From Minisyncoccota bacterium (lineage in GTDB: Bacteria > Patescibacteriota > Minisyncoccia > SW-4-49-11), in NCBI GenBank assembly GCA_032117235.1, contig JAULZW010000005.1, positions 31,264-95,263 on the forward strand: DNA of 64,000 bases, in the 5' to 3' direction. The notes beneath the pieces are model-generated. The model worked only from the letters and a program-made list of their open reading frames with translations, had not been told where the DNA came from and searched no databases. Shown one piece after another: positions 1,277 to 44,708 of the stretch. The translations under genes were made by a program, and so were the position numbers. The first letter of the stretch is position 1, and every line of letters starts with the position of its first letter.

Positions 1277-1278
1277 AC

Positions 1279-2664: not shown

Positions 2665-2673
2665 ATTATTATC

Positions 2674-6294: not shown

Positions 6295-6296
6295 AT

Positions 6297-6776: not shown

Positions 6777-6879
6777 ATATTCAACTTTAACTTTTAATTA
6801 GGGACAGAGCTTCTTACCACTGCTATCCTTTTCGCTATACTCCTAAATTTTTAAGAATATAATGAAAAAGATAACAGTA

Positions 6880-8916
6880 TTATTCAATAACACTATAATC
6901 TTGAGATCGAGAAACCTCCTGTAAGGGTCTTCCTCCAGATTGGAAGAATTTACTAAAGAATTCTACAAAGTGCAATCTACCTACATTGATATAAGTACCT
7001 AAGACATTCAGAGCAATATTAAATATATTTCCTGCTACAAAAATAACAATCATAATAATATATCCAATAACAATCCAAGCACCACCTTTTTCTACTAATC
7101 CGCTACCAGCTAGGTTTGCTAAGGTTCCTACTACTCCAGCAATAATTCCAGTTGCAAGACCTAGAGCAACTAACCTAGTATAAGATAGTATATCTGACAA
7201 ATATCCTACTACTCCAAAAAATACATCATAGGCTCCTTTACCAAACTTAGCAAATATAGACTTCATATCTCTACCCAAAAGATATATCATTGTAAATACA
7301 TAGCCAATATATATATATATCAGAGGATCAATGAGTAATTGAAGTCCATTTCCTAATAATCCAAAATTAATAAGCAATAATAATATTCCAAAGATCAAAG
7401 CTAAAGCCCAAAGAATAGAATCTAGACTAGCATCCCAGAATGACTTTTGATTGAATGCTTGTACAATGTTGAGAGATAACCCAAATAAAAGATGAATAAC
7501 TCCAAGTACAATAGTGAATCCCATCAAAGTAATTACACTGTCCATAGGATTGATAACTTGTAATTGCTGCAAGAAAGGAATTAGTCCAATACTAATTAAG
7601 AATTTCATATGAGGTGACGCTGTAGCAGGGTCAATTGCATCTGGAGTAATTCCAAACCAACTACCAAATAAAGCTCCTACAATCAAAGTAGAGATAGAAG
7701 CAATAAACACTACTGCAAAAATATCTCTTACACCTGATTTTAATCTAGAATTTAATAATCCAAGCCCAGTCAAAATAATTAGAATCAGCGCATATCCAGC
7801 CTCAGATAAAGCTAATCCGAACATAAAGGTGAAGAATATAGCAATAGATAAAGTCGGATCAATTTTGCCAGCCTGCGGATAACCCATAATTTTTGTTACA
7901 GTTTCAAAATGTCTTACAATAGGCAAGTTTTTGAATATAACTGGAGTGTCTTCAGATACAGATGGTAATTCTACAATTTTAATATCATTTGAAATGTCTA
8001 AAATATCTTTTTTATATAAATTAAACTTTTCTTCATCTACCCATAACTTTATAGAAGAATTTGTTTCAGATTCTGGATTAAAAGAATGTAAATAAGAAAT
8101 CAAATTTAGTTGAGAATTTAATACATCTGCTAAAATAGCCAAATCCTTGAGCTGAATAGGGGATTTTTTGAGCTCAAGATTTATTTTATTGATGATTTTG
8201 GCATTAACACTAAATTCTTGTTTACTTTTATGATAAATATCATAAAAAGATCCTGTAACTTCAGCTGGAAATTGAATGAAGGTAGCTTGATTTTGAATTA
8301 TATCTAGTCCAATTTTAACCTGATTTTTTGAAACGGCTAAAATATAAACATAATCAGTCCCAATTTTTTTAACAGACTCCAATACAATAGGAGATAAACT
8401 TTGCTCCAACTGCTCTACTAAATAATGGGCTCTAGATTCATCAACTAAAAATGGTAAAAATTTAATATAAGAATAGGGTTTAAAAATATTAAGTTCGATG
8501 TCTTTTAGAGGTTCTGATTTAGCAATAATATCTTGTAAAACTTCTTGTCTAGTTGTTAAATCATCTTTCAGTCCAGCTTTTTCTACAATCTCTTGAGCTT
8601 TTTTGATAATTTCTCCTTGCTCTGTATTATAATGTTCAAAAATGTCTTCAGTGATTAAAAATCTATCATCTAACACAGCTGAGAACATGGATTTTTTAAC
8701 AGTATGATACCCTTTGTATATATCCAAAGATTTATTTACTATATCTAGATTTTCTAATAGATCCTCTTGTTTATGTAAATAATTTTTAGCTAAAGGAGTT
8801 CTTTCTAGTTTTTCTATAATTTCTCCAACTTGACGCTTTTGAATATAAGCTAATAAGTTTAATTGAGTATTGTTTGGAACAGTGATTTGAATTAGTTTAG
8901 ACGCTTTAACTCCCAT
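6880..8916 (-). CDS. atpI: A/V-type ATP synthase subunit I (a-subunit, membrane)
   Basis: 678 aa with a soluble N-terminal half and a polytopic C-terminal half. Position between the atpH-like gene and K. Confidence 0.8.
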   Translation of the reverse strand: MGVKASKLIQITVPNNTQLNLLAYIQKRQVGEIIEKLERTPLAKNYLHKQEDLLENLDIVNKSLDIYKGYHTVKKSMFSAVLDDRFLITEDIFEHYNTEQGEIIKKAQEIVEKAGLKDDLTTRQEVLQDIIAKSEPLKDIELNIFKPYSYIKFLPFLVDESRAHYLVEQLEQSLSPIVLESVKKIGTDYVYILAVSKNQVKIGLDIIQNQATFIQFPAEVTGSFYDIYHKSKQEFSVNAKIINKINLELKKSPIQLKDLAILADVLNSQLNLISYLHSFNPESETNSSIKLWVDEEKFNLYKKDILDISNDIKIVELPSVSEDTPVIFKNLPIVRHFETVTKIMGYPQAGKIDPTLSIAIFFTFMFGLALSEAGYALILIILTGLGLLNSRLKSGVRDIFAVVFIASISTLIVGALFGSWFGITPDAIDPATASPHMKFLISIGLIPFLQQLQVINPMDSVITLMGFTIVLGVIHLLFGLSLNIVQAFNQKSFWDASLDSILWALALIFGILLLLINFGLLGNGLQLLIDPLIYIYIGYVFTMIYLLGRDMKSIFAKFGKGAYDVFFGVVGYLSDILSYTRLVALGLATGIIAGVVGTLANLAGSGLVEKGGAWIVIGYIIMIVIFVAGNIFNIALNVLGTYINVGRLHFVEFFSKFFQSGGRPLQEVSRSQDYSVIE

Positions 8917-10936: not shown

Positions 10937-11014
10937 TGGAGCCAATGGTGGGGATCGAACCCACGACCTATGCGTTACGAATGCATTGCTCTACCAGAAC
11001 TAAGCTACATTGGC
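10937..11014 (-). tRNA. tRNA-Thr (anticodon CGU), CCA encoded
   Basis: The reverse complement folds into a cloverleaf with a 7-bp acceptor stem GCCAATG/CATTGGC, T-loop TTCGATC and anticodon loop TTCGTAA with U33 and A37. One A-C mismatch closes the anticodon stem. The 3' end is TCCA. Confidence 0.88.
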
Positions 11015-17800: not shown

Positions 17801-20800
17801 TTATAATACTTTTATTCCTAGCACTCTTTCCAGCTCCGCAAAATCAGTTGTATGATCTAATACCTTTAGAATACCAGAAACTTCTAAAGTTGTCATGCCT
17901 TCCTCAATAGCCAACTTTTTAATATTAGAGGTGGAAGCATTAGCTATAATAGTCTCCTTGATTTTAGGAGTCAGCACTAACACTTCAAATATAGCGGTAA
18001 TTCCATTATATCCATTAGGGTGATCTGGACTTTCATTAGACTTAAGAATAGTGTCAGGGATTTGACTATGATATCTTTCTGGTAATTTAGATTTTATAAT
18101 ATCTTTTTGTTCATTAGAAAGAGTAATAGTGATTGCATTGGCAGGATCTATCTTTCTAATAATTCTTTGAGCTATAGTTACATTAACAAAAGTAGCTATC
18201 TCAGATATACCAATTCCGAGATCATATAGTCTTAATATTGCTGACGCTGCATCATTGGTATGTAGAGTAGATAGTAATAAATGTCCAGTGGCTGCAGTTT
18301 GCATAGCTACCTTAGCTGTTTCTGTATCTCTTATCTCTCCAATTAAGACTATATTTGGATTCTGCCTTAACAGAGCTCTAATAGCATTAGGAAAGCTATA
18401 CCCCGTCGCTTCATTTACACTAGTCTGTAAAATGCCAGATAATTTGTATTCAATAGGGTCTTCTATAGTTATTATTTTGACACCAGGTTGATTAAGCGCA
18501 TTAAGAGTTGCATAGAGAGTAGTAGATTTACCAGCGCTAGTAGGTCCTGTTACTAAAATTAGTCCTGTAGTAGCTTGGAGTTGGTCTTGTAACAAGTTTA
18601 TATTATATATATCCATTCCTAAATCATGTAATTTGAGCTTAGCAATATCGGAGCGTAATATTCTCATAACTATGGTCTGACCATAACCTCCTGGAATTAT
18701 AGAAACTCTCACATCAAAATTTTTATCACTAAATATAGTAAAGCGACCCTCTTGAATATTGTTGGCAATATCCAAAGGTAATCCAGAGAAAATTTTAATT
18801 TGATTTAAAATTTGAGGATATAAAGACTTTGGTACACGAGCTTCTTCATATAAAACCCCATCAATTCTAAATCTAATAATCAATTCAGTCATATCAGGTT
18901 CAAGGTGAATGTCGGTAGCTCTTTTATTTAAAGCAGTATTGGTAATAGCTGTTAATTGATCCTGGATAGACATTGACTCAGATATATGAGTAATCTCAGG
19001 TGTAGGAGTCTCTGATTTTTTAATATGAATTCCACGAGATAAGGCAGAAGTCAAAGTAGATTCATAAATTTCATCTATATAAGATATATCTCCTGCAACA
19101 GACAATACTTCTTCTATAGAAGTTTCACCGTCTATTACATGCAAAACTCCATCTTGAAATAGGGTTATCATTCCATTTTCAATAGCTTTCCTAAATACTT
19201 TAAACTCAGGAGTCCCGTTGATAATTAAATCTTTAACATTATCACGAGTCTCAAATAATTCATATAAAGCTAGTCTTCCTTTATATCCAATTCCATAACA
19301 TTTCTCACATCCTTTGGGACGATATAATTTATTGATTTTTTGTGGAATGGTTAAGTTGGATTTAGGAGATATAATAGCTAATGCTTTTTTTATAGAATCT
19401 AATTCCTGTTCTGTAGGAATATATTCTTCTTTACAGTCACAAAATTTTCTTACCAATCTTTGAGCCACAAAAAGATTCATCGCTGAAATTATTAATTGTG
19501 GACTGGAACCAAATTCTTTAAGTCTAGTAATAATACCCACTGAATCATTTGTATGAATAGTAGAAAATACCAAATGCCCAGTTATGGCAGCATTCATAGA
19601 TATACTGGCAGTATCATTATCTCGAACTTCTCCAATCATAATTACATCAGGATCTTGTCTTACAATAGCTTTTAACCCATTAGCAAAGGTATAGCCTTTT
19701 TTTGCATCAACTTGAGTTTGATTAATATTTTGTAATCTATACTCAATTGGATCTTCAATGGTAATAATATTAGTTTCAGTTCTGTTTACGTAATTAAGAA
19801 AAGAGTATAGACTGGTAGTTTTTCCCGAACCAGTAGGTCCAGATAACATAATCATACCCTGAGGCTTGTCGAGATTTCTAACTATAATATCTAAAAAAGT
19901 CTCTCTAATACCAAAACTATAAATATCTAGATTGTGAATTTCTGTATTGAGAAGTCTCATTACAATAATCTCACCAGTTTTGCTAGGTAAAATTGAAACC
20001 CTTACATCAATTGACTGGTTTATATTGCTAGAATTCTCTTTTATAATAATACTAAATCTACCATCTTGAGCAGTAGTCTTTACGTTTAATACAAGAGAAG
20101 CTAAATTTTTTACTCTTGAGATTAATAATTTATACATTTCATTGTCAAAATTCAAAATATCCTGTAAAACTCCATCTATGCGATATCTAAGTCTAGTAAT
20201 ATCACCTTTTGGTTCTATATGTATGTCACTAGCTAAAGAAGAAATAGCCCCGGCACAAATGATTTGCATTAATTCGGAAGTTTCAACTGAATTAATTTTG
20301 TGAGCAAAATCTTCTAAAGCAATAACACTTTGCTTAACTTCTTGTAGCATCTGAAGTGGTATTATGAGGTTGTCTTTTACCACCTCACTTCTTTCCTGTA
20401 AAAATTCATATGCATTATATCCCTTCTCTAAGCTATATCCCGAGACCAGATATAAATCTACTTCATAATTACTTTGATATAATTTTTGCAATATAATTTT
20501 AGCTATAGAGTTATTTATATCTTGTAGGGCTACTTTTAGATTTAATCCAGACCTTTGAAAAATTATCATCTGGGCTTTTTTGGCCTGTTCTTGACTTAGT
20601 ATTTTAAGGGCATCTGGGTTAATTGGAACAAGTTTTAGATTGAGATAAGCCATCCCAAGCTCATTTGCCAATCTTTGAGTTAGTAACTCTTCTTCCCTTT
20701 TATGAATGGCAGCTAAGTTTAAGTCTACTACTTTATCTGAATGTAGTTTGTTTCTAAAACTTTGACGATTATAATTTTTTTGTTTTAGTATTGAACTCAT
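17801..20800 (-). CDS. tandem-duplicated PilB/GspE-family secretion ATPase (two complete modules in one polypeptide)
   Basis: Module 1 has Walker A SGPTGSGKTT, Asp box IITIEDPIEY, Walker B DVIMIGEVRD, His box GHLVFSTIHTND and a tetracysteine CDC...CEKC. Module 2 has TGPTSAGKSTT, IITIEDPIEYKL, IVLIGEIRDTE and GHLLLSTLHTNDA without the cysteines. There is no stop between the modules. Confidence 0.85.
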   Translation of the reverse strand: MSSILKQKNYNRQSFRNKLHSDKVVDLNLAAIHKREEELLTQRLANELGMAYLNLKLVPINPDALKILSQEQAKKAQMIIFQRSGLNLKVALQDINNSIAKIILQKLYQSNYEVDLYLVSGYSLEKGYNAYEFLQERSEVVKDNLIIPLQMLQEVKQSVIALEDFAHKINSVETSELMQIICAGAISSLASDIHIEPKGDITRLRYRIDGVLQDILNFDNEMYKLLISRVKNLASLVLNVKTTAQDGRFSIIIKENSSNINQSIDVRVSILPSKTGEIIVMRLLNTEIHNLDIYSFGIRETFLDIIVRNLDKPQGMIMLSGPTGSGKTTSLYSFLNYVNRTETNIITIEDPIEYRLQNINQTQVDAKKGYTFANGLKAIVRQDPDVIMIGEVRDNDTASISMNAAITGHLVFSTIHTNDSVGIITRLKEFGSSPQLIISAMNLFVAQRLVRKFCDCKEEYIPTEQELDSIKKALAIISPKSNLTIPQKINKLYRPKGCEKCYGIGYKGRLALYELFETRDNVKDLIINGTPEFKVFRKAIENGMITLFQDGVLHVIDGETSIEEVLSVAGDISYIDEIYESTLTSALSRGIHIKKSETPTPEITHISESMSIQDQLTAITNTALNKRATDIHLEPDMTELIIRFRIDGVLYEEARVPKSLYPQILNQIKIFSGLPLDIANNIQEGRFTIFSDKNFDVRVSIIPGGYGQTIVMRILRSDIAKLKLHDLGMDIYNINLLQDQLQATTGLILVTGPTSAGKSTTLYATLNALNQPGVKIITIEDPIEYKLSGILQTSVNEATGYSFPNAIRALLRQNPNIVLIGEIRDTETAKVAMQTAATGHLLLSTLHTNDAASAILRLYDLGIGISEIATFVNVTIAQRIIRKIDPANAITITLSNEQKDIIKSKLPERYHSQIPDTILKSNESPDHPNGYNGITAIFEVLVLTPKIKETIIANASTSNIKKLAIEEGMTTLEVSGILKVLDHTTDFAELERVLGIKVL

Positions 20801-28502: not shown

Positions 28503-29564
28503 ATGAACATCATAGAATTTAAGTCTGAGTTTCAGTCTGTATTGGCACAAGCTATTGAATATAAATTTGAAGAATATAGTGCATATACTAAAGACGCAGA
28601 AATCTTAGACATTATCAGTTACGCTAAGTCTATTATAGGTGGTGGCAAATGTATTCGTCCCTATATGGCATATACCTTGTATGAAACTTTAGGATGCGAC
28701 AACAGAGAAACTATTATGGATTTATTGGTCTCTCTGGAAATTTTTCATGCCTTTGCACTGATACATGACGATGTTATTGATGAGGGTAAACTGCGTCACA
28801 AAGTAGATACTGTGCATACTTTTGTATCTAAAAGAATACAAAAAGATCACAGAAGCTTTAAAAATAGGGTTCACTATGGTAATTCACAAGCTATATTAGT
28901 AGGTGATCTATTATTCTCATGGGCAATTAGTAGATTTCATAAATTCAGTTATTTACCGCATTATAATGAAGCTTGGAAGGTTTTTTATACAATGATAGAT
29001 GAGGTAGCTATAGGACAAATGATAGATGTGAATGTAATTACTAGAGATAAAATTAGCTCTCAACTTATAGAAACTAAAATGAGACTAAAAACAGCTGGAT
29101 ATACTTTTGTAAGACCAATGCAAATCGGAGTGACTTTAGCTGGAAAGGAAAAAGAGCTAACAAAATTTTGTTTAGATTTCGGAATAGCTCTGGGACTTGC
29201 TTTTCAGACACAAGATGATATTCTGGATATTATTGCTGACCCAAAAACAATTAAAAAATCTATTCTGTCCGATATAAGAGAACATCAACATACTTTTTTG
29301 ACCCAATATGTATTGGATAATGGGACAGACGAAGACGTTTTAGAGTTAGAGAAGTATTGGGGTAACTCTGAAATTACTGATAATGATCAAGTTGCTATTG
29401 TTAATCTTTTTGAAAAGACTGGGGCTTTATCATATACTAGATCAAAAGTACAAGAATATTTAGCCCAGGCTAAACAAATTACTATAGAGGAGACAAATAT
29501 TACAGATAAAACCAAACTGGCATTGAATCAATTGATTAAGTATATTGAGGATAGGGGATATTAA
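28503..29564 (+). CDS. trans-polyprenyl diphosphate synthase (GGPP/FPP synthase-like)
   Basis: First aspartate-rich motif LIHDDVIDEG and second motif FQTQDDILD. Confidence 0.8.
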   Translation: MNIIEFKSEFQSVLAQAIEYKFEEYSAYTKDAEILDIISYAKSIIGGGKCIRPYMAYTLYETLGCDNRETIMDLLVSLEIFHAFALIHDDVIDEGKLRHKVDTVHTFVSKRIQKDHRSFKNRVHYGNSQAILVGDLLFSWAISRFHKFSYLPHYNEAWKVFYTMIDEVAIGQMIDVNVITRDKISSQLIETKMRLKTAGYTFVRPMQIGVTLAGKEKELTKFCLDFGIALGLAFQTQDDILDIIADPKTIKKSILSDIREHQHTFLTQYVLDNGTDEDVLELEKYWGNSEITDNDQVAIVNLFEKTGALSYTRSKVQEYLAQAKQITIEETNITDKTKLALNQLIKYIEDRGY

Positions 29565-29568
29565 AAAT

Positions 29569-30423
29569 ATGGATAAACATACTCAAGCAGTAGAGTCTAT
29601 AACTAAACAATTTGGAACTAGTTACTATTTTGCGACTAGGTTCTTACCTCTTGATTTGAGACAAGCAACATATGCGCTATATAGTTTTTTTCGTATTCCA
29701 GATGAAATTGTAGATAACTCTAGTTATTATGCAGAAGAAGATATTTTAATTGAACTAGAAGATTGGATGCAAATGTGGCAAAAAGCTTATTTGGGTGAAG
29801 CAACAGTATATCCAATCTTAGACTTAACAGCTAAAGTTTTTAATAAATATAATATCCCTTATCAATATAGCTTAGATTTTTTAGATGCAATGAAGCAAGA
29901 TGTCTATGTTTCAAGATATGAGACATATAAAAATTTACAGGAATATATGTATGGATCGGCTTCAGTAGTCGGTCTAATGATGAGTTATATCATAGGTTTC
30001 AACAATAAAAAAGCCTTAGATTATGCTCCATATTTGGGTGAAGCTATGCAACTAACTAATTTTATTAGAGATATAGGAGAGGATTATAAAGATAGAGGTA
30101 GAATTTATTTACCGCAGGAAGATATGAATAAATATAATGTAAAAGAAAAAGATATCAAAGAGAATAAGGTTACTTCAGCCTTTGTTGATTTAATGAAATT
30201 TGAAATTCAAAGAGCGCGTAGCCTATATAGGAAGTCTGATAAAGGTCTTAAATATCTTAATAAAAGAGGTAGGTTTTCGGTAATAATGGCAAGCCGGATG
30301 TATGAGGCTATTTTAGATAAAGTAGAACAAAATAACTATGATGTCTTAACGAAAAGAGCCAGAACATCGAAGAGAGAAAAAATATATATACTAGGTAAGT
30401 CTGCTCTAGAGTACGGATTTTAA
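29569..30423 (+). CDS. squalene/phytoene synthase family enzyme (CrtB/CrtM/HpnD-like)
   Basis: Conserved block YALYSFFRIPDEIVD, plus the second Asp-rich region and the RAR...YRKSD region typical of the family. Confidence 0.7.
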   Translation: MDKHTQAVESITKQFGTSYYFATRFLPLDLRQATYALYSFFRIPDEIVDNSSYYAEEDILIELEDWMQMWQKAYLGEATVYPILDLTAKVFNKYNIPYQYSLDFLDAMKQDVYVSRYETYKNLQEYMYGSASVVGLMMSYIIGFNNKKALDYAPYLGEAMQLTNFIRDIGEDYKDRGRIYLPQEDMNKYNVKEKDIKENKVTSAFVDLMKFEIQRARSLYRKSDKGLKYLNKRGRFSVIMASRMYEAILDKVEQNNYDVLTKRARTSKREKIYILGKSALEYGF

Positions 30424-33070: not shown

Positions 33071-36049
33071 ATGTATAACCACAGAACTATTGAACAAAAA
33101 TGGATTAAAAAATGGGCTGAAGGCTTTGTAGATTATAGGGTTGACAATGCTTCAGATAAAGAAAGTAAATATATTTTAGTTGAATTCCCTTTTCCTTCAG
33201 GTGCTGGACTTCATGTAGGACATATCCGTAGCTATGTAGCACAGGATATAAAGGCAAGAATGTATCGTATGCAGGGACAAAATGTACTTTATCCTCTAGG
33301 CTGGGATGCTTTTGGGCTACCAACAGAAAATTATGCTATTCAGAATAATATATCTCCTGTTATTGCAACAGAAAATAATATTAATACCTTCAAAAAACAA
33401 TTAGCATTATTAGGATTATCTTTTGATTGGAGTCGTGAAATTAATACTACTGATCCACAATATTATCGCTGGACGCAATGGATATGGCTACAAATGTATA
33501 AAGCTGGACTTGCTTATCAAGATACCACTAAGGTTTGGTGGTGTGATGAATTAAAAACTGTTCTTGCTAATGAAGAGGTTATTGATGGGAAATCAGAGCG
33601 TGGGGGATATCCTTGTGAGAGAGTGTCCTTAACACAATGGATGTTAGCAATTACCAAATATGCAGATAGATTGGATAAAGATTTAGATACTGTTGATTAT
33701 TTGCCCATTATCAAAACACAACAGAGAAATTGGATTGGTCGTAGTGAGGGAGTTCAATTAAAATTCCAAATTCTAGACTCAGATGCGTCTGTGGAAGTCT
33801 TTACTACTCGAATAGATACCGTATTTGGCGTTACCTTTTTGGTATTAGCACCAGAAAATCCAATTTTAGATAATATTGTAACAACAGAGTATAAGGAGGT
33901 AATACAAGCCTATCAAAAGCAAACGAAATCTAAAAGTGATTTAGATCGTCAGCAAGAAAAAGAAAAAACTGGAGTCTTTACGGGAACTTATGCTCTACAT
34001 CCATTAACAGGGGAGCAAATTCCTATTTGGACTGCCGATTATATATTAATGAATTATGGAACTGGAGCCGTAATGGCAGTACCTGCTCATGATGAGAGAG
34101 ACAGAGAATTTGCTGAAAAATTTGAATTACCTATTAAACAGGTAATTGCTGAATATGCTACTCTTACAGGGCAAGATGCTCCAAAGAGTGATGAAAATAT
34201 TATTAAGTTTGATGCAGCAACTGTAATTGTTAAACATTGGGAAGAAGAATTATATTATGTAATACAATTTAATGATGGACGAAATGGTTTTGTCGGGGGA
34301 CATGTTGAATTAGGTGAGACAACAGAAGAAACTGCAATTCGTGAGACGGCAGAAGAATCTAGATATGTAGATATTAAAAAGATTGAGCAGCTTATTGAGC
34401 ATGTATATAGTCGTGGTTATAAACATCGTAAATTGAGAGAGGAAGAATGTCATGATTCTCTATTTGTAGTAACATTAGGTAGTGACAAACAATTAGAGGT
34501 GATTGATGAGGAGACACAAAAAGGCCGTTGGGTGACTGCAGAAGAAATTATTAAATCAAGACTAGTAGATGACATATATCTATTCCAAACTTTTTTTGAA
34601 TATTATCTTAATCAAAAACCATTTACAGGGTATGGAAAACTTGTAAATTCAGATCAATTTGATGGATTATTCTCAGAAGAAGCTAAAGAATCACTTATTA
34701 CTATATTAGAAGAGAAAAATATCGGGCAAAGAAAAATTCAATATAAACTCCGAGATTGGGTATTCTCACGTCAGCGCTATTGGGGAGAACCTTTCCCTAT
34801 TGTTTGGATTAGCGAACAGTCCTATGGGCAAATATCAGATGAAATTACTGAGTTTCTACCAGCAAATCCTGTTACTCGACAAAAAAATAATAATACGGAA
34901 TATGCGGCTCCCTTGGCTCCTACAGAATTACCTCTCGAATTACCAGAAGTAGAATCATATATTCCACAAGGTTTGGGAGAAGGTCCTTTAGCTCAAACTA
35001 AAGATTGGGTAGAGATTTGGTATCATATTGAAACAGGAAAAACACTATCTCGTAGTGAAACTAAACCCGATGAGAATTGGGTAGAGGGTGTTAGAGAAAC
35101 TGATACTATGCCCAATTGGGCAGGAAGCTCTTGGTATTATCTTAGATATGCTGACCCTCATAATACTCAAGAATTAGCAAGCAAAGCTGCTTTAAAGCAA
35201 TGGCTACCAGTGGACTTATATAATGGGGGTATGGAGCAGGTAACTGTACATTTACTCTATTCTAGGTTTTGGCATAAATTCCTCTATGATATTGGTGTAG
35301 TCCCTACAATAGAGCCCTATCAGAAGCGCATTGCTCATGGAATGATTTTGGCTGAAGGAGGAGTTAAAATGTCAAAATCCAAAGGTAATACCGTGGATCC
35401 GGTAGAAATGGTAGAGTCATTTGGAGCAGATGCTCTCAGAATTTATGAGATGTTTATGGGACCTTATGATGAGGCAATTGCTTGGGATACAAGTGGTCTT
35501 ATTGGATGTAGTCGATTTTTGAAGCGAGTATATCAGTGGATTATGGATATGCAAACTCAAACATTAGAAAAAGCCGTAGACACAATCAAATTAGATTATG
35601 ATACCCATTTATTGATACGTAAAATTACTGAAGATATTGAAAATCAAAAATATAATACCTGTATTAGTAGTTTAATGGAATATCTCAATACCTATATTAA
35701 TAAAGATATTGGTATTGAGTATATTAAGATATATATTACTCTCTTAGCTCCATTTGCTCCACATATTGCGGAAGAATTATGGGAAATATTAGGGGAGAAA
35801 GAATCTGTGCATAAAGCTACTTGGCCACAATTTGATGAATCAAAATTAATTCAGACAGAAGTAGATTATCAAATTCATATTAATGGAAAAATGCGAGATA
35901 TTATTACCGTTAATGCGGAATTAGACAATGAGGCTATTCAACAAAAAGCTTTGGAATCATATAAAGTAAGTACTATTATCACGGATAAAAATACTATTAA
36001 GAAAATTATAGTAAATCAAACTAAAAAAATAGTTATAATTATAAGTTAG
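33071..36049 (+). CDS. leuS: leucyl-tRNA synthetase carrying an inserted Nudix hydrolase domain
   Basis: HVGH (HIGH) and KMSKS motifs. CP1 editing motifs TTRIDT (aa 247-252) and GTGAVMAVPAHDERD are intact. An extra domain of about 140 aa at aa 376-515 begins with a Nudix-type strand and carries the Nudix box GGHVELGETTEETAIRETAEESRY. Confidence 0.9.
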   Translation: MYNHRTIEQKWIKKWAEGFVDYRVDNASDKESKYILVEFPFPSGAGLHVGHIRSYVAQDIKARMYRMQGQNVLYPLGWDAFGLPTENYAIQNNISPVIATENNINTFKKQLALLGLSFDWSREINTTDPQYYRWTQWIWLQMYKAGLAYQDTTKVWWCDELKTVLANEEVIDGKSERGGYPCERVSLTQWMLAITKYADRLDKDLDTVDYLPIIKTQQRNWIGRSEGVQLKFQILDSDASVEVFTTRIDTVFGVTFLVLAPENPILDNIVTTEYKEVIQAYQKQTKSKSDLDRQQEKEKTGVFTGTYALHPLTGEQIPIWTADYILMNYGTGAVMAVPAHDERDREFAEKFELPIKQVIAEYATLTGQDAPKSDENIIKFDAATVIVKHWEEELYYVIQFNDGRNGFVGGHVELGETTEETAIRETAEESRYVDIKKIEQLIEHVYSRGYKHRKLREEECHDSLFVVTLGSDKQLEVIDEETQKGRWVTAEEIIKSRLVDDIYLFQTFFEYYLNQKPFTGYGKLVNSDQFDGLFSEEAKESLITILEEKNIGQRKIQYKLRDWVFSRQRYWGEPFPIVWISEQSYGQISDEITEFLPANPVTRQKNNNTEYAAPLAPTELPLELPEVESYIPQGLGEGPLAQTKDWVEIWYHIETGKTLSRSETKPDENWVEGVRETDTMPNWAGSSWYYLRYADPHNTQELASKAALKQWLPVDLYNGGMEQVTVHLLYSRFWHKFLYDIGVVPTIEPYQKRIAHGMILAEGGVKMSKSKGNTVDPVEMVESFGADALRIYEMFMGPYDEAIAWDTSGLIGCSRFLKRVYQWIMDMQTQTLEKAVDTIKLDYDTHLLIRKITEDIENQKYNTCISSLMEYLNTYINKDIGIEYIKIYITLLAPFAPHIAEELWEILGEKESVHKATWPQFDESKLIQTEVDYQIHINGKMRDIITVNAELDNEAIQQKALESYKVSTIITDKNTIKKIIVNQTKKIVIIIS

Positions 36050-37906: not shown

Positions 37907-38176
37907 TTATATGACAGAAACAGTTTTAACCATTTTTTTCTTTCCAGTAAAAGATGTTTTACGAGTGTCTTTAAATGCAATAACACCATTAGCTATAGAA
38001 TACAAAGTATCATCAGCTCCTCGGGCTACATTTGATCCAGGATAAAATTTGGTTCCTCTTTGTCTAATAATAATTTGTCCTTTTTCTACTTTTTGTCCAG
38101 CATATAATTTAACTCCAAGATATTTTGGATTTGAGTCTCGTCCTAATGCTGTAGAACCACCAGCTTTTCTATGTGC
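37907..38176 (-). CDS. rpmA: 50S ribosomal protein L27
   Basis: [24 protein letters not shown] matches the L27 N-terminus. The longer ORF-track start is an upstream extension. Not paired with rplU here. Confidence 0.85.
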
Positions 38177-38216
38177 CATATCGAATATTATTACTATATA
38201 TGATATAATAATACAT

Positions 38217-38609
38217 ATGAAACACAAATTTGTCAAGCATATTGAGGGTTTTTTACTAATTATTTCAGCTATACTAATAGGTGGCAGTGCCTATCTTATT
38301 GGGAATATTAATGCTCTTGAATCTAATCTGAGTGAAATACAGGTTGTTTATCCAGATTCTATTGCTATTAAATCTGATACCAAGATTGAGGAAATTAAGT
38401 CAAATAAAGACATAATTATACCTACTGATAATAAAACTTCTACCATATCTACGGGTAAAATAATAGCTAGTAAAAATGGGAAAAGATATTATTATCAAAA
38501 TTGTGCTGGCATTAATAGGATTAAACTAGAAAATCGTATATACTTTGAAACAAAGGAGCAAGCTGAGTTGAAGGGCTTAACTCTTGCTTCAGGATGTAAA
38601 GAATTATGA
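38217..38609 (+). CDS. membrane-anchored hypothetical protein
   Basis: Start set at the internal MKHKFV. One TM helix. The C-terminal block [41 protein letters not shown] is unassigned. Confidence 0.35.
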
Positions 38610-39436
38610 GAAAAACTTATATACCAAAAACATATCATAGAAATAAACATATAGTTTCTAATTCTAAATCTAGAAATTTAACTATAGCTTTGTTAAAATT
38701 TACAATGTGCATATTAATTATAGGTGGAATTGTGTATCTATTCTATTCGTCAATTTTGAATACAATTCGTTTTGAAGTTAGAGTAGAAGGTGAGGTATTA
38801 AGAGATGATATTATCTCTAGCACACAAAATTTTGTAGAAGATAAAACTTATTGGTGGTATAATAATAAGAATATACTTCTATTAAGAGTCAATAATTTGG
38901 AAAAAGACTTATTACAAAAATTTCCACAAATTAAAAATATTGAAATTAAAAGAAATTTATTTGATAGAATTATAAATCTAAATATTACTCTTAGAACTCC
39001 GACTTTTTATAGTTGCTATGATGAAATATGTTATAATGTGGGGGAGGATGGTTTCAATATGGGTGTTAGTTCGAGTTTAGATGGGAATCTAATTGAAATA
39101 AAAGGACTGTCTACTCAAAAAGTTGGAGAAACTGTTCTCTCAGAAAGAGAGATGAGTTGGCTAAAAAATATTTTGCAAGAATATAATAAAATAGATAATA
39201 TTAAAATTACTTCCTTTGATATTCAGCAAAAAGCGGAAGATAAAGATAGTATAGTCAGTATTTTTGTATATACAGAAAAAGGATATTATATTATGCTAGA
39301 TTTAGATACAGATGTAAGTTATCAGGCACAAGTATTAAAGCAAATATTTATCTCTCAAATTCCTTTAGAGAAGCAAAACTCATTGGAATATATTGATTTG
39401 AGGATAAAAGATAGAGCTTACTATAAATTTAAATAA
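38606..39436 (+). CDS. FtsQ/DivIB-like cell-division protein (TM + POTRA)
   Basis: Cytoplasmic basic N-terminus, a single TM helix, then a POTRA-like IRFEVRVEGEVLRDD...NIEIKRNLFDRIINLNI. Confidence 0.45.
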   Translation: MRKTYIPKTYHRNKHIVSNSKSRNLTIALLKFTMCILIIGGIVYLFYSSILNTIRFEVRVEGEVLRDDIISSTQNFVEDKTYWWYNNKNILLLRVNNLEKDLLQKFPQIKNIEIKRNLFDRIINLNITLRTPTFYSCYDEICYNVGEDGFNMGVSSSLDGNLIEIKGLSTQKVGETVLSEREMSWLKNILQEYNKIDNIKITSFDIQQKAEDKDSIVSIFVYTEKGYYIMLDLDTDVSYQAQVLKQIFISQIPLEKQNSLEYIDLRIKDRAYYKFK

Positions 39437-39439
39437 TCT

Positions 39440-41230
39440 ATGTTTAATAAATTAGTTCAATTTTATAATAGAACTCCATTGTGGATTTTTGTTTTATGTA
39501 TAACTCTCGCTTTAGGAGTTTTGGCTTTTTGGTCTAGTTTTGGGGACTCTTTAACAGTAGATGAAAGCCCACATATTGTAGCAGGTTATTCTTATGTGGT
39601 TGAAGGAGATTATCGTTTAAATCCAGAGCATCCACCGTTGCTAAAATTATTATCGGGGATATCTATTTGGATAGGAGATAAATTAACTTCTCAAGATATA
39701 TATTTTCCTAACAATATTCCATCTTGGACTGAAAAAGTAAATGCTCAGTGGGATATGGGATATGCTTTTTTATTTAAATCTGGTAATGATGCCAATACTG
39801 TGATCTGGTGGGCTAGATTACCTACTATTCTAATATTATTATTGGGAGTTATATACATTGCTTACTCAGTTAATTATCATACAAATAGTAAAAATATTGC
39901 TATTATTAGTAGTATTTTATATGCATTTTCACCCAATGTAATTGCTCATGGCAGATTAGTTACTACTGATTTAATTGCAAGCCTTGCTTTTTTAGTTGTA
40001 ATAGATTTCTGGATCAGATACCTTAAACATCCTAATTGGAAGCATATTTTTTATTTAACATTATCTATAGGATTTGCTTTTCTATCGAAATTCTCTACTA
40101 TATTATTAATTCCACTACTCTTCTTAACAGGGATTAGTTATATATTTATAAAATATTGGCAAGATAAAAAATTACTTTCTAAAAACTTTATTTTAATACG
40201 GGACTTTATAATTATTGGTCTTGGGGTTTTTTTCATAATAAATTTATTTTATTTTATTACAATGCGAAATATGAGTATAGATACTCAGCTTGTTTTGATT
40301 AAAGAATCTTTTCCTCAAGAAAATCAAATTTCCGATTTAACTAAACAAACATTATCTCAGATTATTCAAACTCCAGGTCTCAGATACTTCGGACACTATC
40401 TTTTAGGTCAGGCTATGGTTGTTCAGAGAGTGGGAGGTGGAAACACAACCTTTTTGTTGGGTGAGTTTACAAATAAAAGTTTTATCGAATATTTCCCATT
40501 GTCATACTTGCTAAAAGAGAATTTAGTCATTATTTTAAGTTTAATTACTATATCATTAACTTTTATTGGTGGATTAATTTATGCATTTAAGGCAAAGAAT
40601 ATTAATCTAAAGTCTAAAATTCTTGATAACTGGTATATTGTTACAATTGTTACTATGATAATAATATACTGGATAATTAGTATTAAAGGTAATCTAAATC
40701 TAGGGATTAGACATATTTTGCCAGCTGTTATTTTAACTTATATTGTGATTGCATTTGGAATTGTAAAATTATTAATCCCACTTAAATTTTCCAGATTGAT
40801 ATTAAGTATATTTCTATCTTGGTATGTAGTAAGCACAATATTGACATATCCAAATTATATTTCGAATTTGAATATATTGGCTGGGCAAAATCAAGGTTAT
40901 CAAATTTTCACAGACTCTAATCTAGATTGGGGACAGGATTTAAAAAGATTAAGTAATTGGACTAAACAGAAAAATATTGATACACTATATATAGATTACT
41001 TTGGCACTGGGGATGTAAATTATTACTTGCCTGATACTAGAATTATCCCAGTAAAATCAACTGATGGACCTCAAATTGGATATACTGCAATTAGTGCTAC
41101 TATGTTTCAGGATTCTTTCTATAATAAGCGTGTTAAACCAGAATATCAAGAATACTGGTGGTTAAAATGGAAAAAACCAGATTATACTATAGGGGATTCA
41201 ATTCTAATTTATTATAACGATAAATATTAA
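39440..41230 (+). CDS. polytopic membrane glycosyltransferase, GT39/GT83 (PMT/ArnT)-like
   Basis: First-loop block SLTVDESPHIVAGYSYVVEGDYRLNPEHPPLLKLL with at least 10 predicted TM helices. Confidence 0.6.
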   Translation: MFNKLVQFYNRTPLWIFVLCITLALGVLAFWSSFGDSLTVDESPHIVAGYSYVVEGDYRLNPEHPPLLKLLSGISIWIGDKLTSQDIYFPNNIPSWTEKVNAQWDMGYAFLFKSGNDANTVIWWARLPTILILLLGVIYIAYSVNYHTNSKNIAIISSILYAFSPNVIAHGRLVTTDLIASLAFLVVIDFWIRYLKHPNWKHIFYLTLSIGFAFLSKFSTILLIPLLFLTGISYIFIKYWQDKKLLSKNFILIRDFIIIGLGVFFIINLFYFITMRNMSIDTQLVLIKESFPQENQISDLTKQTLSQIIQTPGLRYFGHYLLGQAMVVQRVGGGNTTFLLGEFTNKSFIEYFPLSYLLKENLVIILSLITISLTFIGGLIYAFKAKNINLKSKILDNWYIVTIVTMIIIYWIISIKGNLNLGIRHILPAVILTYIVIAFGIVKLLIPLKFSRLILSIFLSWYVVSTILTYPNYISNLNILAGQNQGYQIFTDSNLDWGQDLKRLSNWTKQKNIDTLYIDYFGTGDVNYYLPDTRIIPVKSTDGPQIGYTAISATMFQDSFYNKRVKPEYQEYWWLKWKKPDYTIGDSILIYYNDKY

Positions 41231-41238
41231 ACAAATTT

Positions 41239-41700
41239 ATGCCAGAAATATACAATAATTCCGAAAATAATACCTCAATAGAACTAAATCGACCTCAATC
41301 AGTAGAAAGTCTTACACCAGAAAATTATGTAGAAAATATTTCAAATAGTGAAACACAAATAGAGCATATAACTCCAATAACTGAGCAATATAAAGCTGAA
41401 CAACATATTAAGCAAGTAGTAGAAACTCAGAAGAACATATATAACAATTCTACTTCTGTTAGCCCTATTTCCCCTAAATTACAAGAAAAATATGGTTGGT
41501 TATTAAATATTCCAGAAGAAAATAGGGTGGAGATATCAGTTAAATTAATTACTACAAAAGGGAAAGATATTTTGGATGTAATTCATGCTTTTTTAGCTAT
41601 AGAAGACTATGTATCTCTAGATAGATTAGAGGAAAATTTGAACTACATATATCCAACTTTAGTAGAAGAAGGTTTGTTACCAGATATAAATAATAAATAA
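41239..41700 (+). CDS. hypothetical protein
   Basis: 153 aa with an Asn/Ser/Glu-rich N-terminus. No motif recognised. Confidence 0.35.
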   Translation: MPEIYNNSENNTSIELNRPQSVESLTPENYVENISNSETQIEHITPITEQYKAEQHIKQVVETQKNIYNNSTSVSPISPKLQEKYGWLLNIPEENRVEISVKLITTKGKDILDVIHAFLAIEDYVSLDRLEENLNYIYPTLVEEGLLPDINNK

Positions 41701-41708
41701 ATACTAAT

Positions 41709-44132
41709 ATGCTAACTTTTTTATATATTATTCTTTTAATTTGGATAATAGCAATGGTATTTATAATTTTTACTGTTATAATTCATCCATTTTGGGAAAA
41801 AAGAAGAGTTAATAGGGGGCTATCTATGACTCAATATCAGATTATTGTGCCAAGAAATATTCCTAATCCCGAAGCTAATATTAAAGATCTTATTAGTATA
41901 ATGGAGCAAGTTTATGCTGGATTTTCTTATCTTAAATTTGAAAGTTTTATTAATAGATTAAAATATGGTAATCCTTATATTTCTCTTGAAATTGTAAGTC
42001 CCACTGAAAGAGATGAAATAAATTTTTATATTGGTGTACCTAAGGGATATGAGTCTATCTTTGAAAAGCAAATTCATGGAGTGTATCCTGAGGCTGAATT
42101 AAAAAAAATTATAGATTATAATGTTTTAGTTCCAGGGTCTGAAGTTAGAGCTGGGTATCTTAAGTTAAAAAAACCTTATATTTTGCCAGTCAGAACTTAT
42201 AAAGAATTAGAAGCTAACCCTCTTAACGTTATTACTTCTGCCTTATCAAAAATTCAAGAAGATGAAAGTGCTGTAGTTCAAATTCTAATTCAAAGAGTAT
42301 CTGATAATTGGATTGATGATGGTAAAAAAGTGGTTAAAAAAATGCAAAAGGGGGAATCATTCAAGAACTCTTATAATGAAGTCTTTGGTAGTATAGATAA
42401 GCATTTTTTGAAAGCATTAGTTGAATTAACTAAATCTAAAAATTCTTCAGAAAATGAGTCTAAAATGCTTTTGCCCCAAGAGTCTATGATGTTGGAAAAA
42501 ATTAGTCAAAAAACTTCAAAAGTAGCATATGCTACTAATATTAGGCTTTTAACTATATCAAAAGATAAGCAGAGAGCAGACATTTTATTTGATCAATTAG
42601 AGGGGGCTTTCTCACAGTTTGCAAACGGAGATCTGAATGAATTTAAGGTGATAAAATATCCTAAACAAAATATTAAGCAATTTATATATACCTTTATTTT
42701 TAGATTATTTGATGAAAAAGAATCTATGATTTTAAATACAGAAGAGTTGACTAGTATATATCATATTCCAGCAGTAGGAGTGGAAACCCCTAAAGTTACT
42801 TGGATTACCTCTAAAACCTCTCATCCACCAGTAGATTTACCAAAAGAAGGCTTGTTGATAGGTAAAAATGTATATCGTGGTGAAGAATCTGAAGTTAGAA
42901 TTAAGCAAGAAGACCGTAGAAGGCATATGTATTTAATCGGGCAAACTGGTACTGGTAAAAGCTCTTTGATGAAAAAAATGATTCAAGAGGATTTGCAAGC
43001 TGGACACGGTTTGGCTTTGTTAGACCCAAATGGAGATTTTGCTGTTGAAGTTTTAGGTATGATACCGCCACATCGTATGGATGATGTAATCTATTTTAAC
43101 CCAGCTGACACAAATTATCCAATGGGACTTAATATTCTAGAAGCTCGTAGTCATGAAGAAAAAGACTTTTTAATTCAAGAAATGATTTCTATTTTCTATA
43201 AATTAGTTTCAGATCCTAGTATGATCGGTCCAATTTTCGAGCATAATATGCGAATGGCAATGTCAGCTTTGATGTCTGATGTAAATAATCCAAGAACTCT
43301 AGTAGAAATTCCTATGATGTTTACTGATGAAAATTTTCGCCGAGAAGTTTTGCTGACGGTTGACGATCCTGTTATTAGGCATTTTTGGGAGAAAGAATTT
43401 CCAGCCACTCAAAAAGGCTCACAAGCAGGAGATACTTTGGGATATCTCTTGAGTAAATTAGGTAGATTTATTGAAAATGAAATGGTTAGAAATATAATTG
43501 GGCAATCAAGGTCATCCTTTGATTTTCAAGACATTATGAATTCAGGTAAAATATTGATTGGAAATTTATCCAAAGGAGGGTTGGGTGAGCAAAATAGTAA
43601 CTTGTTAGGTATGTTATTAGTCTCCAAATTACAGATGGCAGCCTTTAAGCGAAATGAAATTCCAGAAGAACAGAGAGTAGATTTTTATCTATATTTGGAT
43701 GAGTTTCAAAACTTTACTACAGACAGTATTTCAACTATTTTGTCTGAGGCTCGTAAATATAGATTATGTTTGATTTTAGCTCATCAATATATAGGACAAT
43801 TATCTGATGGAATTCGTAATGCTGTCTTTGGAAATGTAGGGACGGTAGGGAGTTTTCGCATTAGCTCTGACGATGCTGAAATTATAGCTCAAAGAATGCA
43901 ACCATATTATACGGCTGAGGATTTAGTTTTAATAGATAACTTAAAGGCAGTTATAACATTGATGATTAATGGAAAAACTAGTAAAGCCTTTAATCTGGAA
44001 GTTATTTTTGCTGATAGGTCAAATTTAGCTTTGCAACAACAAGTAATAATGCAGTCAAGACAAAAATATGCCAATCCAGTAGCTGCAGTCAGGGCTGATA
44101 TTGAAAGTCGCACTCATAGTATGTTACAATAG
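41709..44132 (+). CDS. membrane-anchored P-loop ATPase of the VirB4/VirD4 (type IV secretion) superfamily, VirB3-VirB4-fusion-like
   Basis: N-terminal TM helix. Walker A YLIGQTGTGKSS near aa 410, Walker B DFYLYLDEFQNF and the C-terminal block EARKYRLCLILAHQYIGQL. 807 aa. Confidence 0.5.
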   Translation: MLTFLYIILLIWIIAMVFIIFTVIIHPFWEKRRVNRGLSMTQYQIIVPRNIPNPEANIKDLISIMEQVYAGFSYLKFESFINRLKYGNPYISLEIVSPTERDEINFYIGVPKGYESIFEKQIHGVYPEAELKKIIDYNVLVPGSEVRAGYLKLKKPYILPVRTYKELEANPLNVITSALSKIQEDESAVVQILIQRVSDNWIDDGKKVVKKMQKGESFKNSYNEVFGSIDKHFLKALVELTKSKNSSENESKMLLPQESMMLEKISQKTSKVAYATNIRLLTISKDKQRADILFDQLEGAFSQFANGDLNEFKVIKYPKQNIKQFIYTFIFRLFDEKESMILNTEELTSIYHIPAVGVETPKVTWITSKTSHPPVDLPKEGLLIGKNVYRGEESEVRIKQEDRRRHMYLIGQTGTGKSSLMKKMIQEDLQAGHGLALLDPNGDFAVEVLGMIPPHRMDDVIYFNPADTNYPMGLNILEARSHEEKDFLIQEMISIFYKLVSDPSMIGPIFEHNMRMAMSALMSDVNNPRTLVEIPMMFTDENFRREVLLTVDDPVIRHFWEKEFPATQKGSQAGDTLGYLLSKLGRFIENEMVRNIIGQSRSSFDFQDIMNSGKILIGNLSKGGLGEQNSNLLGMLLVSKLQMAAFKRNEIPEEQRVDFYLYLDEFQNFTTDSISTILSEARKYRLCLILAHQYIGQLSDGIRNAVFGNVGTVGSFRISSDDAEIIAQRMQPYYTAEDLVLIDNLKAVITLMINGKTSKAFNLEVIFADRSNLALQQQVIMQSRQKYANPVAAVRADIESRTHSMLQ

Positions 44133-44287
44133 ATAATATTAGAGACATAGTGGACAAAATATTTAACTTATTAATATTCTGTTTTATTTTGCCAATAAGT
44201 TCCACAATATAAAACTAAAACTTATGATTTCACTTCTTTTCCTAATCCAGTCAATATTTTGCGCCATTCTCTGCGCGTTTATGGTGT

Positions 44288-44708
44288 AATGCTTGTCTTA
44301 GTACCATCTACCTTCTTTCTTTTTCCAGATTTGTCACGCTGGTATCCATACAATGTCGCTTATGAACATATGTTTACTGTTATTTTTTTCGCGTGGGGTT
44401 TGTATTTGTATCTCGCAGCAAATAATCCCTCTGCAAACATCGGCCTCATCAACTTCACTGCCTTGCAAGGCCTGCTACACGGTGGGGTGATGTTTGTTCA
44501 CGTGTTTATGGGGATGCATCACAGCTATTGGCATCTTGTGGGGGATGTGCCTTTTCATCTTTCTATGTTTTTTGTGTTAGGCTATCTTCGTAACTACTCA
44601 CCAATAGCTACTGATGAGGTTATAACCTCTAGAGCGAGGCTCTGGACAATAGTGATATTTTCCAGTATTGCAGTACTTGTGGTGTACACTGTGTTTATTC
44701 GCTTGTAG
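44288..44708 (+). CDS. hypothetical polytopic membrane protein in a GC-rich patch
   Basis: About 43% GC with GCG/CGC codons. 3-4 TM helices. Start uncertain: the ORF track uses TTG at 44259, and the first in-frame ATG is at 44288. Confidence 0.35.

Follow-up and report, generated by a model that had tools for sequence, protein, structure and literature searches.

A conserved two-gene unit of Patescibacteria encoding a DUF8128 ATPase with relatives among the VirB4 and VirD4 motors

Patescibacteria depend on host bacteria, and a type IV secretion system (T4SS) has been shown to be essential in S. epibionticum, the one genetically tractable species of the group (Wang et al. 2023). Yet the essential T4SS cluster of this species is without a recognizable coupling protein (Wang et al. 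2023). Nearly every Patescibacteria genome carries an unlinked gene resembling those of type IV coupling proteins (T4CPs). A recent survey counted 5,713 VirD4-type homologues, 148 of them near virB4, and found such genes in 2,918 of the 3,035 Patescibacteria genomes covered (Quinonero-Coronel et al. 2025, PMC12102498). The same survey describes a separate clade of bona fide Patescibacteria VirB4 proteins encoded near dnaA/dnaN, reports no VirB3–VirB4 fusions among them, and raises exaptation of the T4CP homologues as a possibility.

A gene of this orphan kind lies in the window analysed here, a stretch of 64,000 nucleotides from a Minisyncoccota bacterium (assembly GCA_032117235.1, contig JAULZW010000005.1), whose positions are used throughout. 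It encodes an ATPase of 807 residues and directly follows the gene of a small acidic protein. An initial annotation, made from the sequence alone, had read the locus as a VirB3–VirB4-like ATPase with membrane neighbours, possibly the remnant of a type IV secretion or conjugative module. The ATPase is in fact a member of the catalogued Pfam family DUF8128 and of the published orphan-T4CP class, and not of a new family. DUF8128 goes unmentioned in the literature searched. The VirB4-like N-terminal domain, the partner protein with its fusions, the split into two paralogues and the possible match to an essential gene pair, all described below, were not found in that literature either, the survey being covered there by its consulted parts.

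Sequence family and predicted architecture of the ATPase

The transmembrane (TM) segment and the Walker A and Walker B motifs are found where the initial annotation had placed them (residues 1-31, 411-419 and 661-669; Table 1). So is its R-K-Y…Q signature block, residues 680-698 reading EARKYRLCLILAHQYIGQL. In an alignment of 51 homologues with a mean column identity of 55%, the residues G411, G414, G416, K417, D664, E665, R682, K683, Y684 and Q693 are invariant. The N-terminal segment is the single hydrophobic one of the protein and is followed by a basic stretch, EKRRVNRG. The remainder of the chain is predicted to be cytoplasmic by the positive-inside rule.

Every sequence profile assigns the ATPase half to the coupling proteins (VirD4/TrwB/TraD) and not to VirB4. 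Pfam TrwB_AAD_bind covers residues 396-700 with 40.9 bits (cut-off 20.5) and TraG-D_C covers residues 659-717, signature block included, with 23.3 bits (cut-off 22). The TraD-type matches in NCBIfam are weak, the TraD equivalog models staying far under their cut-offs. The best VirB4-type model, NCBIfam VirB4_plasma (NF045975), reaches 18.7 bits against a cut-off of 590 and only in the P-loop, and neither TIGR00929 VirB4_CagE nor Pfam CagE_TrbE_VirB matches the protein. Searches of PDB sequences gave TrwB (E 1.2e-4) and DotL with the single protein, and TrwB (8e-8), DotL (5e-5) and the HerA–NurA helicase (5e-4) with the 51-sequence profile, which found no VirB4 chain at E ≤ 1. With neither VirB4 models above threshold nor VirB4 chains matched, a VirB4 identity by sequence was rejected.

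The best matches to the protein, 90-92% identical, come from metagenome-assembled genomes (MAGs) of 'Candidatus Parcubacteria' and 'Paceibacteria'. One search returned more than 3,800 homologues at E < 1e-5, full-length relatives at 44-47% identity being spread across many candidate phyla and Parcubacteria-type lineages, and the family is present in at least 587 GTDB species. Membership of DUF8128 was read from the annotations of homologues, including a 92% identical one (P0001); PF26449 (DUF8128) stands ahead of PF10412 in all 120 homologues among the matches listed. DUF8128 comprises 1,844 clusters at 50% identity, and the domain always starts within the first ~180 residues. One of the related proteins studied here, from locus L078, is 43% identical to the window protein and is itself identical to KKS75791.1 of Azambacteria, which Table S3 of PMC12102498 lists as a T4CP (t4cp1, 93.64% coverage, VirB4 proximity No). 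Taken together, the profile assignments and this listing identify the window ATPase, at the sequence level, as the published orphan T4CP homologue of the phylum.

The overall architecture was approached through an AlphaFold2 model computed from the 51-sequence alignment (pLDDT 85, pTM 0.70). The model shows a long N-terminal helix, then an alpha/beta domain corresponding to DUF8128, then a RecA-like ATPase domain. An all-alpha insertion occupies the position of the T4CP all-alpha domain, with 361 of 420 TrwB residues aligned, so that the T4CP-type nucleotide-binding domain with its inserted all-alpha domain is recognized in the model. The N-terminal domain gave a different picture. In Foldseek, 14 TrwK/VirB4 chains are the top 14 matches (E 4e-7 to 2e-4, probability 1.00), with no other chain below 1e-3, and among solved structures this domain resembles the VirB4/TrwK N-terminal domain only. 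Neither HerA nor FtsK was returned by the N-domain search. Sequence searches gave no signal linking DUF8128 to the VirB4 N-terminal domain. These fold matches indicate that DUF8128 would adopt a VirB4-N-terminal-domain-like fold, and the window ATPase thus has, at the fold level, a VirB4-type N-terminal domain. The 807-residue protein, as modelled, follows the VirB4-like two-domain plan behind a membrane helix of its own, and its ATPase half is coupling-protein-like.

The earlier statement that the size of the protein and its motif positions agree with VirB4 thus holds for fold and architecture, because the N-terminal domain resembles VirB4/TrwK only, and fails for the sequence family, where the profiles give coupling proteins. 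The proposed VirB3 fusion has no support: the single helix shows neither VirB3 homology nor a membrane hairpin, and no VirB3 family match was obtained at E ≤ 10 among 18 members of the ATPase family. A membrane helix directly ahead of a VirB4-like domain does mimic the topology of a VirB3–VirB4 fusion.

Two other identities have to be weighed against these assignments. A HerA/FtsK-type DNA translocase, acting in chromosome segregation, repair or DNA uptake, could account for the Pfam DUF87 match (the HerA central domain; residues 388-471, 33.7 bits, above cut-off), for the profile hit to the HerA–NurA helicase and for the FtsQ-like gene found nearby in this lineage. It is nonetheless improbable. 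The DUF87 and FtsK matches concern the P-loop region only, FtsK_SpoIIIE remaining at 13.1 bits for a cut-off of 24. T4CP and VirB4 matches rank higher in sequence and fold searches alike, the N-terminal domain is VirB4-like and not a HAS barrel, and neighbour clustering revealed no NurA-like nuclease nearby. The HerA/FtsK placement, which the initial annotation had itself set against its reading, was thus not obtained. S. epibionticum, moreover, has its own essential true FtsK, together with FtsQ in its division and cell wall (dcw) region, so that no substitution of FtsK by the DUF8128 ATPase is needed, which weakens the idea of an FtsK substitute.

An anti-phage defence ATPase, related to the mad8/HerA/DptH-type nucleoside triphosphatases, is suggested by PADLOC mad8 (residues 403-732, E 6.3e-14) and by defence-type HerA models (E 5.7e-7 and 2e-4). 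These matches are restricted to the shared ATPase core. The neighbour clustering links neither an effector nor any further defence gene to the ATPase, and conservation that is nearly universal and mostly vertical is not what defence islands typically show; this very improbable candidate was rejected.

The upstream partner, the paralogues and a possible role

Open reading frames (ORFs) were called in 82 fetched ATPase loci and searched with the window proteins by phmmer and jackhmmer; the neighbouring genes were also clustered without bias. A single widely linked family type emerged from this clustering, namely the small ORF just before the ATPase start, which is found immediately upstream in about 73 of the 78 loci with upstream sequence. 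For the window member, a protein of 153 residues, none of the Pfam, NCBIfam, PADLOC and PHROGs libraries gave a family match, in line with its first description as an unknown. A Pfam scan of the partner proteins yielded sub-threshold matches only, such as DUF3801 (E 0.015).

The partner could be sorted into at least three sequence types, which co-vary with the ATPase clades. Type A, that of the window lineage, is immediately upstream in all of its 11 loci, its conserved part being the C-terminal ~75 residues of the 153-residue protein. Type B (about 46 loci) has the C-terminal motif K-G-[VI]-x-x-A-[VI]...M-N-D-P-Y-x-L-D-x-F-H-D, and type C (about 16 loci) occurs in Falkowbacteria-like lineages. 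A jackhmmer search from the window partner converged on close relatives only. In hhalign comparisons, A and C reached 83% probability once (full-length alignments) and E 0.006 with the C-terminal domains, A and B gave E 0.002-0.006, and B and C gave nothing. Homology among the three types is statistically unsupported, and they are treated here as positional equivalents. In 25 loci, Staskawiczbacteria-like (e.g. L060 5965-6573 and L046 7010-7597), a protein of ~200 residues with an N-terminal TM helix and a conserved Cys-containing C-terminal region precedes the type-B partner, in a three-gene arrangement.

The link between partner and ATPase is also seen within single polypeptides. The type-B hidden Markov model (HMM) matches residues 5-130 of at least 20 of 150 listed DUF8128 proteins (E 6e-14 to 1e-4). 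These fused proteins (P0159, P0250, P0242, P0214, P0221 and about 15 more; loci L092-L095) carry an extension of ~145 residues at the N-terminus that the HMM matches over nearly its whole length. The partner domain stands where the membrane helix would otherwise be and continues directly into the first DUF8128 strand. The fusions sit in housekeeping contexts on Patescibacteria-like contigs. As Rosetta-stone evidence, they indicate that the two proteins function jointly, at least where the partner is of type B. In L092, L093 and L094, the fused ATPase is still preceded by a small unannotated ORF (108-140 residues). The two window genes (41239-41700 and 41709-44132) are a conserved chromosomal two-gene unit of Patescibacteria.

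Some genomes carry two versions of the ATPase. In the Berkelbacteria-like loci L096 (658-8087) and L097 (127-8423), two DUF8128 genes lie a few kb apart and flank a sigma-70 gene. The upstream one, here called par1 (837-845 residues), is followed by the sigma-70 gene and then by par2 (1028-1140 residues), which has a long C-terminal tail; in L097 only, an ORF of 170 residues precedes par1 with a 4-nt overlap. The window protein scores 584-600 bits against par1 (39-41% identity) and 479-483 bits against par2 (35%). Neighbour joining sets the par2 clade apart from the window group, par1, the fused forms and the ATPases with type-B and type-C partners, and all 100 of 100 bootstraps support this split. 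By sequence, the window protein groups with par1.

One of the two paralogues may have its counterpart in a pair of essential S. epibionticum genes. The transposon insertion sequencing table of Wang et al. (2023) lists SEML1_0141 (139 residues, hypothetical) and SEML1_0142 (1019 residues, labelled 'TraM recognition domain', with a P-loop domain at 381-800), 12 nt apart and both essential. It also lists SEML1_0293 (921 residues, PF10412 at 402-719), directly downstream of the sigma factor gene SEML1_0294 and non-essential at all time points. The arrangement of sigma factor and long form is the same as in L096 and L097. Neither gene pair is discussed in the text of that paper.

The role that we tentatively favour, at a confidence somewhat short of even, is that par1 and its partner form a second motor, of the coupling type, for the T4SS encoded on Patescibacteria chromosomes, docking through the VirB4-like N-terminal domain. 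The 807-residue protein would be held in the cytoplasmic membrane by its one N-terminal helix. Its cytoplasmic DUF8128 domain would be folded like the part of VirB4 that docks onto the T4SS inner-membrane platform, and would be followed by a RecA-like ATPase of the VirB4/VirD4 class with its all-alpha insertion and intact Walker motifs. By homology with TrwB, VirB4 and HerA, the ATPase may be expected to assemble into a ring and to work at the membrane as an ATP-driven motor, on a substrate or in an assembly step. The role of adaptor or regulator would fall to the small acidic protein, whose gene ends 8 nt upstream. The pair could thereby provide the 'missing' coupling or second ATPase of a chromosomal T4SS encoded elsewhere in the genome, and the small TM, FtsQ-like and GT-C genes would be envelope or division genes that form an operon with the ATPase in this lineage only.

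Several observations weigh against this coupling role. The T4SS role of the window pair is one that we infer, and the resemblance of the predicted DUF8128 domain to the VirB4 N-terminal domain is seen at the fold level only. The type-A partner of the window has no supported sequence homology to the fused type B (hhalign E ~0.002-0.006), and membrane anchoring is not universal, since the fused forms are without the membrane helix. SEML1_0141/0142 may be the counterpart of the window pair, as judged from gene arrangement and domain coordinates only. In the survey data used here, the ATPase gene is almost never beside virB4 (148/5,713), and no T4SS gene was found among the scanned window ORFs. 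T4CP-like genes also occur in ~500 more genomes than VirB4 (2,918 vs 2,417, PMC12102498). This excess fits a T4SS-independent role, and MAG incompleteness and mixed families blur the count.

Neighbouring genes and the mobile-element question

The five ORFs between 38217 and 44132 on the + strand are co-directional, with spacings of -4, 3, 8 and 8 nt that suggest an operon (Table 1). Upstream lie genes for leucyl-tRNA synthetase (LeuRS), a glycogen-phosphorylase-like protein and ribosomal protein L27, and downstream genes for tryptophanyl-tRNA synthetase (TrpRS; trpS) and a beta-CASP RNase. The window, with a GC content of ~31%, has the appearance of a Patescibacteria (Parcubacteria/Paceibacteria) chromosome.

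Table 1. Features of the ATPase locus and domains of the 807-residue protein (window positions)
Feature	Position	Strand	Remarks
Small anchored protein, 130 residues	38217-38609	+	ATG start; TM segment at residues 5-32; Cys-containing C-terminal domain
FtsQ/DivIB-like bitopic protein, 276 residues	38606-39436	+	TM segment at residues 24-54 and POTRA
GT-C-type (PMT_2/PMT-like) polytopic glycosyltransferase, 596 residues	39440-41230	+	Pfam and hydropathy
Acidic partner protein, 153 residues	41239-41700	+	No TM segment; stop 8 nt before the ATPase start codon
Membrane-anchored ATPase (predicted), DUF8128 family, 807 residues	41709-44132	+	T4CP-like C-terminal half, VirB4-like overall architecture
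N-terminal TM helix, residues 1-31	41709-41801	+	Hydropathy scan; model helix 2-38
DUF8128 alpha/beta domain, residues ~40-350	41826-42758	+	VirB4 N-terminal-domain-like fold (predicted)
RecA-like ATPase domain, residues ~382-770	42852-44018	+	Predicted model
Walker A GQTGTGKSS, residues 411-419	42939-42965	+	Invariant residues in 51 homologues
All-alpha insertion, residues ~482-611, between Walker A and Walker B	43152-43541	+	Eight predicted helices
Walker B region LYLDEFQNF (661-669) and EARKY...HQ...Q block (680-698)	43689-43802	+	Motif positions, TraG-D_C
DUF6632 membrane protein ('GC-rich patch')	44259-44708	+	DUF6632 E 8.5e-10; between the ATPase gene and trpS

The descriptions first given to the three upstream genes hold individually. 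The small protein has its N-terminal anchor, and its conserved form starts at ATG 38217, as had been assumed; a longer call of 186 residues from a TTG codon (38049-38609, +) overlaps the L27 gene (37907-38236, -) and was discarded as an over-call. For the 276-residue protein, read as an FtsQ-like POTRA protein outside any dcw cluster, POTRA_1 alone is sub-threshold (E 0.026, 15.2 vs 23 bits). A profile of 10 orthologues matches FtsQ in the PDB (8hhf_Q, E 8e-5), and three further FtsQ chains with E values of about 3e-3. The scanned window ORFs revealed no mur or fts genes, the gene being flanked by the small TM gene (L27 beyond) and by the GT-C gene, which places it outside a dcw cluster. The GT39/PMT-like glycosyltransferase (GT) matches PMT_2 (E 6.9e-13, 49.5 bits, cut-off 26.1) and PMT (E 2e-6, 28 bits, cut-off 22.7) and has about 10 or more hydrophobic segments.

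Their association with the ATPase is of limited phylogenetic depth. The order L27(-), small TM, FtsQ-like, GT-C, 153-residue partner, ATPase and TrpRS is seen only in close relatives of at least 59% identity (L001, L003-L010); in L011, at 52% identity, the order is kept and the GT is absent. Among the 82 loci, FtsQ-like and GT-C genes are each near the ATPase in 13, and small TM orthologues occur in 10 close loci. L022, L053 and L077 have FtsQ-like and GT genes near the ATPase, the GT being inverted; at L078 no more than a fragment of the GT is present, in the same inverted orientation, so that the GT is on the opposite strand in four of its 13 loci. The minimal or novel envelope-spanning machine of five genes proposed initially was rejected on this restricted linkage. 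The small TM, FtsQ-like and GT-C genes are lineage-specific neighbours and not T4SS parts.

The same neighbours bear on another explanation, that of an autonomous, T4SS-independent motor exapted for some housekeeping function of the envelope that only Patescibacteria have, such as cargo export or insertion, or a task connected with division and wall glycosylation, as these neighbours might suggest. Such a motor would agree with a gene that, in the survey data consulted, is nearly universal in the phylum, unlinked to virB4 and found in more genomes than VirB4, and that sits in housekeeping contexts. The authors of the survey raise exaptation themselves (PMC12102498). The translational coupling of the ATPase gene to FtsQ-like and GT-C genes within one operon of this lineage, and the recurrence of both genes near the ATPase in the distant loci L022, L053 and L077, point the same way. 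The linkage is however confined to 13 of the 82 loci, with the GT inverted or missing in some, neighbour clustering shows no other substrate or channel partner conserved nearby, and structurally both halves are related to T4SS ATPases only. We regard this autonomous motor as the main alternative, less likely than not, and retain the coupling-type T4SS motor as our working interpretation.

The initial annotation had also considered a decayed integrative element ending at a GC-rich patch, in other words a remnant of a conjugative or integrative element with the ATPase as the last gene of a decayed T4SS island. The ATPase does come from families typical of conjugation, PHROGs family phrog_5156 matches it over its full length (2e-86), stand-alone homologues of its ATPase half are found on IMG/VR contigs, and a GC-rich gene lies downstream. 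The other data contradict this scenario, which is next to negligible. The ATPase ORF has its full length and the invariant catalytic residues and alignment conservation described above, and the gene is found in at least 587 species, mostly in differing housekeeping contexts (ribosomal proteins, aminoacyl-tRNA synthetases, SecY, Adk, Map, RNases). The five genes, with 24-36% GC, do not depart from the genomic background. Among the scanned window ORFs, no gene for VirB6/8/9/10, a pilin, a relaxase or an integrase was found; the canonical VirB genes had indeed been reported as unrecognisable. The suggested check for flanking repeats or an integrase revealed neither in the window scans, the only repeats being imperfect, AT-rich and at chance level, with none att-like. 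The only tRNA gene of the window (10940-11014) is not adjacent to the locus.

The GC-rich patch itself is real, with 41-43% GC at 44300-44699 for ~31% elsewhere. It does not mark the end of an element: it coincides with an unrelated DUF6632 gene, which has no counterpart in any of the 82 related loci. In L003, L004 and L010, trpS starts ~20 nt after the ATPase stop. Since trpS directly follows the ATPase in relatives devoid of DUF6632, the patch is an insertion private to the window genome; the DUF6632 gene is probably a recent, small insertion, separate from the ATPase. Annotation of this locus as a mobile-element remnant is thus inappropriate, and the five-gene module and decayed-element readings should be dropped.

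The IMG/VR matches (contigs L083-L090, 34-60% GC) are stand-alone proteins of 411-582 residues, 35-42% identical to the ATPase half (~383-800), in which no DUF8128 was found. A viral origin was rejected, these being ATPase-domain proteins only.

Relaxase and T4SS genes were found neither in the window nor in the 82 related loci, with one exception. At locus L002 (16035-18454; complete Nealsonbacteria genome CP179892.1), a 410-residue protein matching T4SS_pilin (E 3e-6) and an ORF of 825 residues without Pfam matches lie 5.6-7 kb downstream of the DUF8128 ATPase, the pilin-type gene at 5.6 kb. This is a rare case of proximity between a DUF8128 ATPase and T4SS-type genes.

Other genes of the window deserve a mention. 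The LeuRS (992 residues, 33071-36049, +) carries a NUDIX domain (PF00293, E 7e-12, residues 394-494) inserted straight after the editing domain (residues 219-363). A protein of 999 residues (17801-20800, -) contains two stretches of T2SSE, the PilB/GspE-type secretion ATPase (E 4e-204), and appears to be a tandem-duplicated pilus or secretion ATPase within a single polypeptide. A V/A-type ATPase operon (662-8916, -) encodes D, B, A and F subunits, a double c subunit and an I subunit, along with two ORFs without matches. Polyprenyl synthase and squalene/phytoene synthase genes are adjacent at 28503-30423 (+), beside recA.

Comparison with described systems

The VirB4-like N-terminal half, the small partner, the fusions and the paralogue split turn an 'orphan T4CP homologue' into a testable two-protein unit, and the result bears on how VirB4 and VirD4 diverged. 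A bolder and rather unlikely proposal is that the DUF8128 ATPase and its partner are an essential Patescibacteria motor representing an evolutionary intermediate between VirB4 and VirD4, engaged in T4SS coupling or in separate translocation. If this were true, the protein would combine a retained VirB4 docking domain with the ATPase of a coupling protein, and the pair would either supply the coupling function not found by Wang et al. (2023) or run a separate translocation process.

Set beside described systems, the window ATPase shares with T4CPs above-threshold matches to curated T4CP models. In canonical T4CPs (VirD4/TrwB, TraD, DotL), however, the TM domain leads straight into the nucleotide-binding domain, which is not the case here, a helix and a 340-residue domain coming first. 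The TM domain of TrwB consists of two helices. The relaxase and/or T4SS genes that would accompany a T4CP are absent here, and the window gene is chromosomal and vertically conserved.

VirB4 is not known to have a membrane helix of its own in the R388 inner-membrane complex. In contrast with the fold comparison, no sequence model of VirB4/TrwK (R388; PDB 7o42 and 8rtd, C-terminal domain 4ag5) matched the window protein above threshold. VirB4 genes belong to T4SS clusters with VirB3, VirB6 and VirB8, whereas the window ATPase is surrounded by L27, FtsQ-like, GT-C and TrpRS genes. With VirB3–VirB4 fusions it shares a membrane segment just before a VirB4-type domain, which here is one helix without VirB3 homology. 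HerA and FtsK differ by their HAS barrel, NurA partner and FtsK alpha/gamma domains, all lacking in the window ATPase, and integrative or conjugative elements differ by their integrase or relaxase, att-like repeats, tRNA target and deviant composition, none of which is seen at this locus.

The ATPase–partner pair also recalls Cagbeta–CagZ of Helicobacter pylori (PDB 8dol), by analogy only. The orphan T4CPs of Patescibacteria (Quinonero-Coronel et al. 2025, PMC12102498) are of the same family as the window ATPase. In the consulted parts of that paper they are treated simply as coupling-protein homologues, to which the VirB4-like N-terminal domain, the small partner, the fusions and the paralogue split are added here.

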